This document shows positions 1 to 9,337 of a stretch of DNA of 64,000 nucleotides, one piece after another. The notes beneath the pieces are model-generated. The model had not been told where the DNA came from, did not search any database, and saw nothing but the letters and a program-made list of their open reading frames with translations. Each line of letters begins with the position of its first letter. The first letter of the stretch is position 1. A program made the translations under genes and the position numbers. The DNA is from Haliea sp. (lineage in GTDB: Bacteria; Pseudomonadota; Gammaproteobacteria; Pseudomonadales; Halieaceae): contig JBGTGB010000058.1 of the NCBI GenBank assembly GCA_041746975.1, positions 3,855-67,854 of the forward strand, in the 5' to 3' direction.

Positions 1-1233
1 AGCAGCACCCGTGACACTCGCGATCCGCCAGCGAACGCTGCGGCGCTGGCGGGTGCGGGGGTCGGTGCTGCACTCGCGGCGGAGGCCGCCATCTGCGCCG
101 CCAATCCGATCTGCCTGGTGGCCTTCCCTGTCACCCCGGTGGGAATGCTGGAGGCGCCCCTGCGCAATCGCAGCAGTGGCGAGTTGGAGAACCGGGCGGC
201 CTATGCCCTGCTGTCCTATGACCTGACCGATGCTGTCACCCTTACGGTCGAGGGTCGGTATCAGGAGGAGAAGGTTTCGCAGCAATCGATCAGCCAGCGC
301 CTGGGGCAGGAAGTCACGAACTTCACCGCCATCTCCGACACTTTCAGCTCCTTTACTCCTCGCGTCACCCTGGACTGGAAGATCAACGACAACAACATGA
401 TCTATTTCCTGGTCGCAGAGGGAACCAAGCCGGGTGGCTTCAACTCGGCAGCCGCAATTGATGCCGGGGTGCCTGATTTCGAGGAAGAAGATCTTCGGTC
501 ATTCGAAATTGGTACCAAGAGCGTGCTCCTGGACGGCCAGATGGTTTTCAATACGGCCTTTTTCTACAACGAGCTCGAGGGCTATCAGCTGACCCAGAAC
601 GTCCAGGGCGCTGGCGAGATCACTTCGGCAACGGTCAACGCCGGTGATGCGGATCTTACCGGACTGGAATTGTCCATGTACTACCGACCCGAGGCACTGC
701 CGGGGCTGTCCCTGACTGCGAATTATGCCTACGTGGATCCGGAGTTCACCAATGGTTTCGATCTCAATCAGGGCCTGCTTAACGACATCGCCGATGATGG
801 CCTGACCAACTGTTCCACTGGCGTACAGTTTGAGGGCGCTGCGTGTTCGGTGGATACCGTTGCGCTGGGTTCCATTCGCGGTAAGCAGATTCCCCGCACA
901 TCACGGAATACCGCCTTCGTTGATGCTGAGTATCGGCAGGCGCTGGGGAATGGCTGGGAGTGGTACCTGGGGGCAAACTACTCCTATGAAGAGAGCCGCT
1001 TCGCTCAGGTGCTGAACCTCGCCGAGACCGGTGACATCGGCACGATGAACGCGCGTTTTGGCCTCGAGAACGATAAATACGCTATCAGCATCTGGGGCAA
1101 GAACCTGACCGGAGAGGACGCGGTGCCGTTTATTCTCCGCTATGCAGATGCGGGCGACAGCCTAAAACGGAACTTCGTCGCCACCACGCGGCGAGACACC
1201 TACTTCGGAGCCACCTTCACCGCGCGCTTCTAG
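1..1233 (+). CDS. TonB-dependent receptor, C-terminal part (5' end outside window)
   Basis: Frame is open from base 1; beta-barrel motifs (FTPRVTLDWK, YFLVAEGTKPGGFN, FEIGTKS), C-terminal GATFTARF with terminal Phe. Confidence 0.93.
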   Translation, partial: SSTRDTRDPPANAAALAGAGVGAALAAEAAICAANPICLVAFPVTPVGMLEAPLRNRSSGELENRAAYALLSYDLTDAVTLTVEGRYQEEKVSQQSISQRLGQEVTNFTAISDTFSSFTPRVTLDWKINDNNMIYFLVAEGTKPGGFNSAAAIDAGVPDFEEEDLRSFEIGTKSVLLDGQMVFNTAFFYNELEGYQLTQNVQGAGEITSATVNAGDADLTGLELSMYYRPEALPGLSLTANYAYVDPEFTNGFDLNQGLLNDIADDGLTNCSTGVQFEGAACSVDTVALGSIRGKQIPRTSRNTAFVDAEYRQALGNGWEWYLGANYSYEESRFAQVLNLAETGDIGTMNARFGLENDKYAISIWGKNLTGEDAVPFILRYADAGDSLKRNFVATTRRDTYFGATFTARF

Positions 1234-1255
1234 TGGTGTAGCCACGGTGAGGCAG

Positions 1256-1290
1256 AGCCGGCATGTGCTTTTGTAGCCATGCCGGCTTTT
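1256..1290 (+). terminator. Rho-independent terminator-like hairpin after the TonB receptor
   Basis: AGCCGGCATG (1256-1265) / CATGCCGGCT (1278-1287) inverted repeat followed by T-run. Confidence 0.6.
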
Positions 1291-1316
1291 CAATTTTCAA
1301 ATCACGGGGCTAGTTG

Positions 1317-6989: not shown

Positions 6990-7865
6990 TTACTCGGATT
7001 TGCGACCGTCGATGATCTTCTTCATATAGGTCCAGGAGGTCTCGTTGCGGCGCGGGTCATCGCCCGCGGGTGGGCTGGTGTACTCCGGATAGTTGGTGGC
7101 GATCTCGTTCTTCATCAGCTCCGAGAGTTGGTCATAGCTTTCCAGCTTGCGACCCATGGCGTTGAAGTACAGCAGGCCACTGCGGTTACCCATCTCCATC
7201 CAGGGCAGCCACTGCGAGATCCGGACCCAGGATACGACGGGATACTCGACATCGATGGCCGGATCCAGCAGTGCAGCGGTGCTGCCGTTGAAGTCGAAAA
7301 TCTCGGTCGCGTGGTAAGTGCCGCCAACGTACTGCTGATAATCCCCGGCGAGTGGGTTGGTGTAGAACAGCGGTATCTCCATGCGCATAAGGTATTGGCC
7401 GTTCATGTCTTCGAGATTGAATGTGCGCTCTTCTCCGCTGGGTGTCCTGCCGTAGCTGGTGTGGTTGACTGGATCATTGGCGACGTGAATCACCTCGTTG
7501 CTGGCACCGGTCCAGGGATTCTCGAAGGTGCGCATGACCTCGTTGGTCTCCGGATCGAGATACAGCATGATCTCCCGGGACACCAGTCTGTAACCCTTGC
7601 CCAGCTGCGGGTCACTGACTTCCAGGCACTGGCGGATGTTCATGCCGTCGAGGTTGAAGACAAGCTTGTCGCGTTCCCCGGGCACCCGGGCATAGGCGCG
7701 CCCGAACCACTGGAATACCTGGGGATCGTTGTCCTTGAGGGAACACTGCACCTTGCGGTTCAGCTGGATGTAGCCGTCGGCTGTATTGGGGTCTATCTGT
7801 TCAGCGCTGGCGGAGCAGACGAGCAGGGCGCCGAGCCCGGCTGCGAGAAGTTGGCGAATATGCAT
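6990..7865 (-). CDS. DUF1838-like exported protein
   Basis: Signal peptide (LLAAGLGALLVCSASA); WFGRAYARVPGERDKLVFNLDGMN, NPWTG, HVANDPVN, WLPWMEMG resemble DUF1838 as I recall it. Confidence 0.7.
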   Translation of the reverse strand: MHIRQLLAAGLGALLVCSASAEQIDPNTADGYIQLNRKVQCSLKDNDPQVFQWFGRAYARVPGERDKLVFNLDGMNIRQCLEVSDPQLGKGYRLVSREIMLYLDPETNEVMRTFENPWTGASNEVIHVANDPVNHTSYGRTPSGEERTFNLEDMNGQYLMRMEIPLFYTNPLAGDYQQYVGGTYHATEIFDFNGSTAALLDPAIDVEYPVVSWVRISQWLPWMEMGNRSGLLYFNAMGRKLESYDQLSELMKNEIATNYPEYTSPPAGDDPRRNETSWTYMKKIIDGRKSE

Positions 7866-7970
7866 GATCAGTCCTCTTATTGGTTAGGCTTGTTGCCCGA
7901 GAATGCAGCTTTCCCCAGTACTATATAATATGATCTATAAGTATGGAAATATAACTTATAAGGAGTGGTG

Positions 7971-8285
7971 ATGGCAGCCTATATGGTGGTCGAGGCAGAA
8001 ATTGAGCAGCCTCAGGGGTTTGCGGCCTATGCGAGAGCGGTGCCGGCGCTGGTGGCGGAATACGGTGGCGAGTATCTTGTGCTCGGCGGAGAGGCGGAGT
8101 CTCTGGAAGGGGATTGGGGTGGCGTCCGGCTGGTGCTGCACCGCTGGCCCGACCGCGACACGGCCCGCCGCTTCTGGCACTCTCCCGAATACCGGGAACT
8201 CAAGCGCCTGCGCGAGGGAACCGGCACCTTTCGTGTTATGTTGCTTGAGGGGCTGGAGCGAGAAGTGCTGGAGAACGCGCCATGA
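7971..8285 (+). CDS. DUF1330 domain protein
   Basis: AYMVVE...FAAYARAVPALVAEYGGEYLVLGG...LEGDW...FWHSPEYRELKRLR; AGGAG RBS at 7961. Confidence 0.85.
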   Translation: MAAYMVVEAEIEQPQGFAAYARAVPALVAEYGGEYLVLGGEAESLEGDWGGVRLVLHRWPDRDTARRFWHSPEYRELKRLREGTGTFRVMLLEGLEREVLENAP

Positions 8286-9337
8286 GTATTGCACCCTATG
8301 CGGCGCTGGCACTGCAGATGCGCTGTGATGCGGTCAATGGCTGCAACGACGTCAGTGAGGCACGCCGCCAGATGCTGCAGACCATCGCCCGCTGTGACGG
8401 GCTTATCCGCGGCAGCAAGGGGTTCTTGCGCACTTTTGCCGGCCAGGAGATCAGGCTGGTGGTACTGCCGGAATACTTCATGACCGGTTTCCCCATGGGC
8501 GAGTCTGTTTCCGCCTGGATTGAGCTCGCCTGCATCGAGGAGAATGGCCCCGAATACCAGGCCCTGGCGCAGGTAGCGCGGGCGCACAATGTCTACCTCT
8601 CTGGCAATGTCTACGAGCTCGACCCGCACTTCCCGGGCCTGTATTTCCAGACCAGTTTTATTCTTGCGGACACGGGCGAGCGCGTGCTGCGCTACCGGCG
8701 TCTGCTCTCCATGTTCTCGCCCACGCCCCACGATGTGCTCGAGCGCTATGTCGAGGTATACGGTGAGGAGTCTCTGTTCCCGGTCGCCGACACTGAGCTC
8801 GGCAAGCTGGCCTGTGTTGCCTCAGAGGAAATTCTCTATCCGGAGATCAGCCGTGCCCTCGCCTTGCGGGGGGCGGAGGTCATTTGCCACTCCTCCAGCG
8901 AGGTGGGCAGCCCATTGGCTACGCCCAAGAATATCGCCAAGCAGGCCCGAGCCCTCGAAAACATGGCCTACCTGGTCTCCGCCAATAGCGCCGGCATCGC
9001 CGGGATAGCGTTTCCCGAGGCCTCCACGGACGGGCATTCCCAGGTTGTGGACTACAAAGGTCGGCTCTTGGCGGAGGCGGGGCCAGGTGAATCCATGGTG
9101 GGCTGTGCAGAGCTGGACGTTGCGGCTCTACGGCGGGCGCGAGCTACACCGGCTATGGGCAATCTCCTGGCGCGACAGCGTCTGGACCTGTTCGCGTCTA
9201 CCTATAGTGACCGCGTTGTCCATCCCCCGAATACGCTACTGGACCCGGATAACGGAGCTATCAAAGTGCCGGACCGGACCCACTTCATGGACACCCAGCG
9301 CGAAGCTATCGCTCGCCTGCGCGAGCCCGGCAAATAG
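8282..9337 (+). CDS. Carbon-nitrogen hydrolase (nitrilase superfamily) with non-canonical active site
   Basis: LVVLPEY, LRYRR, GKLACVASEEILYPE, RALENMAYLVSAN, GHSQVVDYKG; ATGA overlap with upstream gene. Confidence 0.88.
   Translation: MSIAPYAALALQMRCDAVNGCNDVSEARRQMLQTIARCDGLIRGSKGFLRTFAGQEIRLVVLPEYFMTGFPMGESVSAWIELACIEENGPEYQALAQVARAHNVYLSGNVYELDPHFPGLYFQTSFILADTGERVLRYRRLLSMFSPTPHDVLERYVEVYGEESLFPVADTELGKLACVASEEILYPEISRALALRGAEVICHSSSEVGSPLATPKNIAKQARALENMAYLVSANSAGIAGIAFPEASTDGHSQVVDYKGRLLAEAGPGESMVGCAELDVAALRRARATPAMGNLLARQRLDLFASTYSDRVVHPPNTLLDPDNGAIKVPDRTHFMDTQREAIARLREPGK

Follow-up and report, generated by a model that had tools for sequence, protein, structure and literature searches.

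A modular gene locus of Haliea sp. encoding a Glu-Arg-Ser CN hydrolase coupled to DUF1330: a candidate arm of a widespread catabolic system

The window analysed here is a stretch of 64,000 nt of contig JBGTGB010000058.1 of Haliea sp., obtained from a hot-spring metagenome known from DNA runs only; all positions are those of the window (prefix W where needed). Its first part carries genes for a TonB-dependent outer-membrane receptor, an SSS symporter, a racemase-fold protein, a FAD monooxygenase, an aldehyde dehydrogenase (ALDH), exported VOC and DUF1838 proteins, a DUF1330 protein and a CN hydrolase of the nitrilase superfamily (Table 1). The most striking single element is the CN hydrolase, a member of a clade with invariant Glu-Arg-Ser residues and a fixed DUF1330 partner. 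Genes were identified from a listing of open reading frames (ORFs) and from Pfam and NCBIfam scans, which found all nine genes of the initial annotation in their places and in the alternating orientation that it described (+ + - + + - - + +). The limits of 1–9337 that it gave to the system are too narrow: the left end is cut by the window and the right side reaches ∼14.9 kb by synteny, so that the functional unit would also take in a PrpR-like activator and the CoA-transferase and lyase genes. The second CoA-transferase is probably in the same operon as the first and is assigned to the system by its position only. AT-rich divergent promoters had also been proposed; this description fits 7866–7970 (38% GC compared with 62.5% for the whole region) and does not fit 3487–3620, which has 57% GC and is AT-rich in just one short patch.

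Table 1. Genes and sequence elements of the locus, in window positions.
Feature	Positions	Strand	Evidence and remarks
TonB-dependent outer-membrane receptor, C-terminal part, truncated by window start	1–1233	+	PF00593 1.6e-32; conserved core
Terminator-like hairpin and T-run 3' of receptor gene	1256–1291	+	AGCCGGCATG...CATGCCGGCTTTT, read directly; left breakpoint of 5.1-kb indel
SSS symporter, PutP/PanF-like	1314–2804	+	PF00474 6e-63; first gene of inserted module
Asp/Glu-racemase-superfamily protein, Amdase/maleate-isomerase-like	2728–3486	-	PF17645 2.8e-17, PF01177 6.7e-4
Class-A FAD monooxygenase (FAD_binding_3), HspB/PnpA-like	3621–4829	+	PF01494 3.7e-62
NAD(P)-dependent aldehyde dehydrogenase (ALDH)	4844–6400	+	PF00171 8.7e-150; last gene of inserted module
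Exported VOC (glyoxalase-fold) protein, 188 aa	6372–6938	-	PF00903 1.6e-10; conserved core
Exported DUF1838 protein	6990–7865	-	PF08894 3.6e-73; conserved core
Conserved cis-element GTATGGAAATATAAC, DUF1838/DUF1330 divergent promoter region	7941–7955	+	Motif scan
DUF1330 protein, dimeric alpha/beta-barrel clan	7971–8285	+	PF07045 2e-26
Non-canonical CN hydrolase (nitrilase superfamily)	8282–9337	+	PF00795 1.2e-33
Transcriptional activator, PrpR_N + sigma-54 AAA+ + Fis-HTH	9356–11296	-	PF06506 2.6e-29, PF00158 3.4e-59
Sigma-54-type promoter candidate TGGCACAACACCTGC	11478–11492	+	48 nt 5' of CoA-transferase start
Family-III CoA-transferase (succinate-hydroxymethylglutarate/glutarate/mesaconate type)	11540–12739	+	PF02515 4.8e-121
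HMG-CoA-lyase-type lyase	12739–13656	+	NCBIfam PRK05692 304.7 bits
Second family-III CoA-transferase	13713–14894	+	PF02515 4.1e-93

The CN hydrolase has the domain, the predicted fold and the catalytic Glu of the nitrilase superfamily and lacks the catalytic Lys and the nucleophilic Cys. Residues were assigned by aligning a 27-homologue profile to NitFhit (1ems) and to aliphatic amidase (2uxy). Glu64 occupies the catalytic Glu position and matches ...LPE(C/Y)F... of NitFhit, while in the 1ems and 2uxy alignments Arg140 lies at the catalytic Lys position ('YNKL'/'YRKI') and Ser181, within the motif A-S-E-E, at the catalytic Cys position ('SICYD'). In 203 family sequences (120 database clusters and 83 sequences from the loci described below), Glu is present in all 203, Arg in 202 and Ser in 202, and the whole set E64, R140, D151, S181, E182, E183 and H203 is kept in 202. 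The altered nitrilase triad noticed in the initial annotation is thus a property of the family. The AlphaFold model (pLDDT 80) shows a normal α–β–β–α sandwich, which Foldseek matched to the amidases and formamidases 2uxy, 5g3o and 3ivz with a probability of 1.0 and TM scores of 0.63–0.80.

An exhaustive profile search gave 280 clusters (50% identity) below 1e-30, and the best 150 clusters include Glu-Arg-Ser (E-R-S) proteins and canonical E-K-C proteins as well as a sister E-R-C type, which has the motif C-G-E and likewise His-Asp at 150–151. This distribution suggests that the Lys-to-Arg change came before the Cys-to-Ser change, the latter arising within one clade. The protein shares PF00795, the fold and the catalytic Glu with AmiE, AmiF and Nit, but differs from them in its Lys-to-Arg and Cys-to-Ser exchanges and in a gene always paired with DUF1330 or, in Bacteroidota, with a lipoprotein. 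An invariant TPHD motif probably lies roughly at the second Glu of the amidase tetrad, as placed by an inferred alignment. Relatives of 580–745 aa (P0244, P0250, P0255–P0259, P0268 and others) are tandem CN-hydrolase domains, in most of which one domain is E-K-C and the other is degenerate (Gly, Ala or Ser at the Cys position); P0244 and P0250 have E-K-C in both. No fusion of DUF1330 to a CN hydrolase was found among 150 representatives. In an annotated plasmid collection, hydrolase matches were distant or unannotated only, and the copy from Nonomuraea shows just an adjacent ALDH.

In all 40 of the loci that have DUF1330, this gene stands directly 5' of the CN hydrolase on the same strand, and in 31 of them its stop codon and the hydrolase start are separated by -4 to +6 nt. 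The two overlap in the window (ATGA), and DUF1330 is predicted to be translationally coupled to the hydrolase. The VOC and DUF1838 proteins both have Sec-type signal peptides (MHTPFLSALLAVALWLPLAAAAAP... and …LLVCSASAEQ…, respectively), in agreement with the two exported proteins of the initial annotation; such peptides are found in nearly all DUF1838 copies and in the VOC orthologues that adjoin DUF1838. None of the 3106 homologues of DUF1838 is named, and its AF2 model (β-rich, pLDDT 72) gave no meaningful fold match in the PDB (TM ≤0.27). A VOC-related protein of 293 aa (unk293) that occurs in related loci aligned with the 188-aa VOC protein of the window with an hhalign probability of 81%; a PDB profile search of unk293 for a PcpA/LinE-type dioxygenase produced marginal glyoxalase matches only. 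A literature search found no paper giving a function to DUF1838, DUF1330 or the Ser-type hydrolase clade, and nothing relevant on Ser-type nitrilase-superfamily members, citramalyl-CoA/amidase clusters, kynurenate catabolism or CpcT in heterotrophs.

To follow these genes across genomes, the hydrolase was searched for in one genome per species and 80 loci were fetched with 10-kb flanks (relatives are labelled L0xx); they include loci from Halieaceae/Luminiphilus, SAR92/Porticoccaceae, Paraglaciecola, Thalassotalea, Cytophagales/Arcicella, Chitinophaga, Trueperaceae, Roseiflexus and Sporosarcina, and the Nonomuraea copy was taken from the plasmid collection. The Ser/Arg clade is present in at least 577 species genomes of Gammaproteobacteria (Luminiphilus, SAR92/Porticoccaceae, Halieaceae and Paraglaciecola), Bacteroidota, Deinococcota, Chloroflexota, Bacillota and Actinomycetota, with 57–90% identity across these phyla, and most of its carriers come from photic-zone marine, freshwater or hot-spring habitats. 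Partner frequencies were taken from 47 loci with at least 8 kb on each side, in which ORFs were clustered and representatives annotated. A family-III CoA-transferase is present in 66% of these loci, DUF1330 in 57% (70% if a Bacteroidota lipoprotein at the same position is included), unk293 in 55%, ALDH in 51% (85% for ALDH or a FAD_binding_4 oxidase), an HMG-CoA-lyase-like gene and a GntR/UTRA regulator in 49% each, a CurA-like enone reductase in 45%, an isochorismatase in 43%, a LeuC/LeuD-like hydratase in 40%, DUF1838 in 36% and paired PuuE-like deacetylases in 34%. DUF1838 or VOC-like proteins occur in 79%, and the lyase-type gene accompanies a CoA-transferase in 22 of the 47.

The synteny search that had been proposed as a check therefore came out in favour of the system: the invariable pairing of DUF1330 with the hydrolase and the recurrence of the partners mean that the genes do co-occur elsewhere, and they support a functional link between them. 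In L003 (CN hydrolase 69% identical), the order is TonB-SSF-Amdase-FADmo-...-VOC-DUF1838-DUF1330-CNhyd; this locus, L006 and L036 each have the GTGMP-type racemase-fold gene and the FAD monooxygenase together with the core. In Sphingomonas crocodyli, a sister hydrolase that retains Cys (E-R-C) lies directly 5' of an Amdase-like gene, in a locus with a second Amdase–monooxygenase pair, an HMGL-like gene, an isochorismatase and two PuuE-like genes. A monooxygenase, an Amdase, an isochorismatase and a GntR gene are also found together on alphaproteobacterial replicons of Thioclava and Roseomonas. The L036 contig is labelled as a Nitrosopumilus MAG (metagenome-assembled genome), yet its cluster is typically gammaproteobacterial (symporter 73% identical to that of the window) and it is probably mis-binned.

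Comparison with the closest relative (L086/L087; hydrolase 88%, receptor 93%, VOC 91% and DUF1838 89% identical in amino-acid sequence) shows that the locus is a mosaic of modules. W1–1291 corresponds to L086 6734–8024 and W6372–9330 to L086 8092–11049, both at 83% nucleotide identity, and this colinearity, which stops at 9330 just 5' of the hydrolase stop codon, defines a conserved core of TonB receptor, exported VOC, exported DUF1838, DUF1330 and CN hydrolase. In L086/L087, the receptor (823 aa) directly adjoins VOC; the 5.1-kb segment W1292–6371 (right breakpoint 6372), which carries the symporter, isomerase-like, monooxygenase and ALDH genes, stands where L086 has 67 bp. The single compact nine-gene unit of the initial annotation is thus not upheld. 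The module of four genes is likewise conserved as a unit. It has the same internal arrangement in L088 (73, 54, 62 and 66% amino-acid identity in the above order) and lies between receptor and VOC in L003, where a FAD_binding_4 oxidase and an α/β-hydrolase replace ALDH; L006 and L036 have the Amdase-like, monooxygenase and ALDH genes and L036 also the symporter. Two convergent gene pairs of the window share 3'-terminal sequence: the symporter and isomerase-like genes have 77 nt in common (2728–2804), the ALDH and VOC genes 29 nt (6372–6400); the former overlap is found in L003 too (46 nt).

The motif [AGT]TATGNNAATATAA occurs eight times in 1.43 Mb of loci, and seven of the eight copies lie -231 to -362 nt from a CN-hydrolase start, on the same strand and 5' of DUF1330; W7941–7955, between DUF1838 and DUF1330, is the only good match in the 64-kb window. 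In the Luminiphilus-type loci (L015, L019–L031 and L042), a different conserved element lies 5' of DUF1330, …GCTATATTGC-N-CGCATAACAATAA…, with TATTG/CAATA inverted repeats. No operator shared by the Amdase/monooxygenase promoter and the core promoter was found. When the Amdase/monooxygenase divergent regions were compared with their L006 and L036 equivalents, a short element, TAGACTATTG, was common to W 3510–3530 and L006; it could be a GntR-type operator.

The PrpR-like activator scores 438 bits against TIGR02329, below the 499-bit cut-off, and its neighbours are the CoA-transferase and lyase with no prp genes, so that it does not qualify as PrpR; it occupies the position of the GntR/UTRA regulator of related loci. 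Upstream of the CoA-transferase, TGGCACAACACCTGC is the only intergenic site of the first ∼15 kb that fits the -24/-12 pattern with no more than one mismatch; as the count of this pattern over the whole window is not above chance, its assignment as a sigma-54 promoter depends on its position. The activator appears to drive only the CoA-transferase/lyase operon. A sigma-54 promoter was also sought in the DUF1838/DUF1330 divergent region and rejected, the only match (TGG-N9-TTGC) having the wrong spacing. The first CoA-transferase is closest in the PDB to SUGCT (9br6, 2e-75) and is 68–81% identical in amino-acid sequence to copies in L003, L006, L016, L032, L035, L036, L070 and L076; as a pair, the CoA-transferase and lyase are 60–81% identical to copies adjoining the core in eight loci. 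The lyase scores above the HMG-CoA lyase threshold (PRK05692, 304.7 compared with 246 bits; PDB 2ftp, 1e-64). A divergent PrpR_N-AAA+-HTH activator beside its probable target with a candidate -24/-12 promoter recalls the PrpR/prpBCDE and SUGCT/HMG-CoA lyase systems, whereas the score of the activator below the equivalog cut-off and the lack of prpBCD genes set the locus apart from the PrpR system.

Given this mosaic, the core, the four-gene module and the CoA-transferase/lyase operon might be unrelated, serving different substrates and having accumulated as cassettes in a catabolic island. The replacement of 67 bp of L086/L087 by W1292–6371 would fit such an origin, as would the restriction of the conserved motif to 7941–7955 and of the sigma-54 promoter candidate to the region 5' of the CoA-transferase, the separate palindrome regulon over 15–28 kb (see below) and L088, where no CN hydrolase is encoded within 9 kb of the four-gene module. 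Even there, however, the module adjoins LeuCD, a CurA-like reductase, an amine oxidase, a cytochrome c, a CpeT-like protein and a TonB receptor. The module recurs between receptor and VOC in L003 and beside the core in L006 and L036, although the CN hydrolases of these loci are just 62–69% identical; the sister E-R-C hydrolase adjoins an Amdase-like gene in an alphaproteobacterium, and the CoA-transferase and lyase copies keep company with the core in eight loci. Such repeated independent association across classes points to a functional link and argues against accidental insertion, and we regard the juxtaposition of unrelated modules as unlikely.

Within the four-gene module, the symporter reaches 322 bits with the PutP model TIGR02121 (cut-off 515 bits), and the nearest NCBIfam model of ALDH is HpaE (484 bits, cut-off 638 bits). 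The monooxygenase, whose ORF opens at 3534 and whose probable start, judged from homologue alignment, is ATG 3621, is closest in the PDB to PnpA (6ain, 1.9e-46) and HspB (7da9, 3.4e-38), both of which are ipso-hydroxylating enzymes. The racemase-fold protein matches maleate cis–trans isomerase best (4fq5/4fq7, 8e-13; 4fq5, 8.4e-13) and shares with it the Asp/Glu racemase fold, PF17645 and the first of the two catalytic cysteines (C76, in FACTASS), but the second Cys position is taken by G191-T192-G193-M-P195 (ITGTGMP). The C76/GTGMP pattern is invariant or nearly so in an alignment of 18 members (homologues 42–61% identical to the query and a 24%-identical second Amdase copy of L089), so that the altered catalytic residue noted in the initial annotation is again family-wide. 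AMDase retains only the second Cys, the opposite single-Cys pattern; here, the score for AMDase (NF052327) is 53 bits against a cut-off of 225 bits and Cys is lacking at the second, C188-equivalent position. The protein thus has the fold of NicE/Iso with just the first of its two catalytic cysteines, and its reaction is probably neither maleate isomerization nor that of AMDase.

The initial annotation matched the cluster to no known pathway. Its family composition, however, parallels the maleamate branch of nicotine and nicotinate catabolism. The pyrrolidine pathway of nicotine in Pseudomonas putida S16 and the nic cluster of P. putida KT2440 comprise NicA2/Pnao with CycN, Sapd, HspB or NicC, Hpo/NicX, Nfo/NicD, Ami/NicF and Iso/NicE, of which the amine-oxidase/cytochrome-c pairing, HspB, Iso and Ami are hallmarks of the S16 pathway and NicC, NicX, NicD, NicF and NicE are the nicotinate equivalents. 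The protein families of the lower, maleamate part of the S16 pathway find matches here: the monooxygenase is homologous to HspB (which, like NicC, yields 2,5-dihydroxypyridine), if closer to PnpA, the racemase-fold protein is nearest to maleate isomerase 4fq5 and an ALDH is present. Related loci add an isochorismatase-family amidase with best PDB matches to 4l07/4l08, NicF (3ot4/3uao) and N-carbamoylsarcosine amidase (4fq5 and 4l07 being strain S16 proteins), along with α/β-hydrolases and an oxidase of the PF01593 family that is Tat-exported and paired with a small cytochrome c. The genes for this Tat-signal flavin amine oxidase (best PDB matches MAO and L-amino acid oxidase; NicA2, 1e-16) and for the cytochrome c, a small lipoprotein with CXXCH, lie left of the receptor in L086 and L088; in L086, ALDH and CurA-like reductase genes stand on that side as well. 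The paired deacetylase-like proteins of related loci have the allantoinase PuuE as their closest solved relative.

The system differs from the nic and nicotine pathways in its end-game, which would use a CoA-transferase and an HMG-CoA-lyase-type enzyme (with a LeuCD-like hydratase in relatives) and not isomerization to fumarate, and in its most conserved parts, DUF1838, exported VOC, DUF1330 and the E-R-S hydrolase, which have no counterpart there. The isomerase-like protein lacks the second catalytic Cys, and sequence identities to the known enzymes are low. The N-containing substrate proposed in the initial annotation, a heteroaromatic or amino-acid derivative, fits the likeness to HspB, PnpA, maleate isomerase, 4l07/NicF-like amidase and amine oxidase, but the case stays indirect because the only enzyme for C–N bonds within 1–9337 lacks the canonical nucleophile.

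On balance, we tentatively read the region as one arm of a widespread modular catabolic system with a maleamate-like route, the substrate being an N-heteroaromatic (pyridine-type, probably hydroxylated) or amine-bearing carboxylate; we would give this reading slightly less than an even chance. A possible order of steps, each drawn from homology and synteny, is as follows; the substrate class and the reactions of DUF1838, DUF1330 and the Ser-type hydrolase are likewise inferred. The TonB receptor would carry the compound into the periplasm, where the exported VOC and DUF1838 proteins would convert or bind it, joined in related loci by a CpeT-like lipoprotein and by the Tat-exported flavin amine oxidase, which has a cytochrome c of its own. 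The SSS symporter would move the product into the cytoplasm, the HspB/PnpA-like monooxygenase would hydroxylate the ring at a substituted position and ALDH would oxidize the aldehyde that arises. The DUF1330/CN-hydrolase (Glu-Arg-Ser) pair might then act on an amide-, imide- or enamine-type ring-opened intermediate, and the single-Cys isomerase-like protein might process the resulting unsaturated or malonate-type dicarboxylate. Finally, the sigma-54-controlled CoA-transferase and the HMG-CoA-lyase-type enzyme would cleave a hydroxy-dicarboxylate to central metabolites.

Several observations weigh against this assignment. No 2,5-dihydroxypyridine 5,6-dioxygenase of the NicX/Hpo type was found in the Pfam-scanned major ORFs of 1–26 kb or in the frequent partner families of the 47 loci (no specific NicX model was run), so that ring cleavage is left without an enzyme; the window has a single VOC protein, which is small and exported. 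No molybdenum hydroxylase was present in the same ORFs or in related loci. For an N-formylmaleamate deformylase or a maleamate amidase, 1–9337 offers only the non-canonical CN hydrolase, and the isochorismatase and α/β-hydrolase at 19319–20785 appear to belong to another regulon. Textbook reactions cannot be assumed for a CN hydrolase without the canonical Cys and Lys or for an isomerase-like protein with one Cys. When compared with L086/L087, the four-gene module is an indel; it is without the conserved promoter motif and can occur, as in L088, apart from the hydrolase. The FAD_binding_4 oxidase, the two PuuE-like genes, the LeuCD-like hydratase, an adjacent GntR/UTRA-type regulator, the amine oxidase and the CpeT-like protein are absent from the 64-kb window. 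Matches to such partners are weak there, namely a GntR-like ORF at 27163–27942 (36% over 67 aa) and an isochorismatase at 19319–19972 that shows only family-level similarity (33–37%) to the cluster isochorismatases. The organism, moreover, is represented by metagenomic DNA runs only.

The same families can be read without nitrogen. The Ser/Arg CN hydrolase would then be an esterase, a lactonase or a non-catalytic subunit, and the cluster would degrade a phenolic or hydroquinone-type aromatic by PnpA-like ipso-hydroxylation, VOC-type ring cleavage, a semialdehyde dehydrogenase and enone reduction. The p-nitrophenol monooxygenase PnpA is indeed the best PDB relative of the monooxygenase, which is followed by an ALDH nearest to ring-fission semialdehyde dehydrogenases (PnpE is the semialdehyde dehydrogenase of the p-nitrophenol pathway); VOC-like unk293 is found in more than half of the loci, CurA-like reductases, α/β-hydrolases, CMD and cupin proteins are common partners, and the canonical C–N nucleophile is missing. 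The p-nitrophenol/hydroquinone pathway, however, has a benzoquinone reductase, a hydroquinone dioxygenase and a maleylacetate reductase, which are lacking here. Enzymes that unambiguously act on amides and amines abound in related loci (two PuuE-like proteins, isochorismatase-family amidases, an amidase-signature enzyme and a Tat-exported flavin amine oxidase), the sister clade retains the catalytic Cys in the same gene context, and the hydrolase fold and nearest relatives are those of formamidase and aliphatic amidase. A non-nitrogenous substrate accordingly seems improbable to us.

A bolder version of the nitrogenous reading would make the DUF1330-coupled Glu-Arg-Ser proteins a new catalytic type of the nitrilase superfamily, working through a nucleophilic Ser or by non-covalent catalysis adapted to unsaturated intermediates that react with thiols, within an undescribed global pathway for natural N-heterocycles. 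DUF1838, exported VOC and, in relatives, the CpeT-like lipoprotein would be its partners, and one candidate substrate would be the pyrrolinone or maleimide fragments that bilins and chlorophyll yield, used by bacteria of the photic zone and of hot springs. We hold this to be distinctly unlikely.

A system devoted to bilin breakdown, that is, to products of linear tetrapyrroles such as substituted maleimides or pyrrolinones, is very unlikely, the argument being purely circumstantial and a literature search having found no support. In such a system, a CpeT-like lipoprotein and the TonB receptor would capture the bilin, PuuE-like, isochorismatase and CN-hydrolase proteins would open and deamidate the imide, and the LeuCD-like hydratase, the CoA-transferase and the HMG-CoA-lyase-type enzyme would dismantle alkyl-maleates. 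This chemistry is plausible, as LeuCD acts on alkyl-maleates and the HMGL family includes citramalyl-CoA lyase. A genuine CpeT/CpcT domain (PF06206, 1.9e-33) is found in a lipoprotein of non-phototrophs beside a TonB receptor in nine related loci; two PuuE-like genes, isochorismatase, LeuC/LeuD, CoA-transferase, HMGL and a CurA-like reductase are frequent partners, and the carriers live mainly in photic-zone marine, freshwater and hot-spring settings. The window, on the other hand, has no CpeT-like, LeuCD or PuuE-like genes and no haem- or bilin-specific enzyme is nearby; proteins of the CpcT fold may also bind other hydrophobic ligands. In the non-phototrophic gammaproteobacteria of L086 (1–2371) and L088 (11204–14059), a lipoprotein of this bilin-lyase family stands beside the flavin amine oxidase and cytochrome c. 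Links of DUF1838, unk242, a DUF3598-like protein and c33 to CpeT were considered and rejected, profile–profile tests being negative or weak; the best, for c33, had a pairwise E-value of 0.0012 but a probability of 19%.

To the right of the locus, a second catabolic cluster of the amide/lactam type extends over 15026–26233 and contains a TonB receptor, an EamA exporter, two isochorismatases, an α/β-hydrolase (RutD/PcaD-like), a third family-III CoA-transferase and caprolactamase/hydantoinase-like α and β subunits (22159–24249 and 24269–26233). The palindrome AATGT-N4-ACATT occurs three times in the window (chance mean 0.9): at 14935–14948, 5' of the second TonB receptor, at 19271–19284, between two divergent isochorismatase genes, and at 27974–27987, beside the GntR-like ORF. 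This placement suggests a separate GntR regulon over ∼15–28 kb.

Relatives of the tentative N-substrate system are transcribed in seawater. For the Luminiphilus locus L042, four seawater metatranscriptomes contain matching contigs, in which the FAD_binding_4/DUF1330/hydrolase block is most consistently represented; contig depth is a poor measure of expression and DNA carry-over is possible, so that these data show only that relatives are transcribed in situ, and no more than that. The identity of the substrate would name a carbon or nitrogen source of abundant marine heterotrophs. It would also give functions to several DUF families and would test whether the nitrilase fold works without its Cys–Lys pair.

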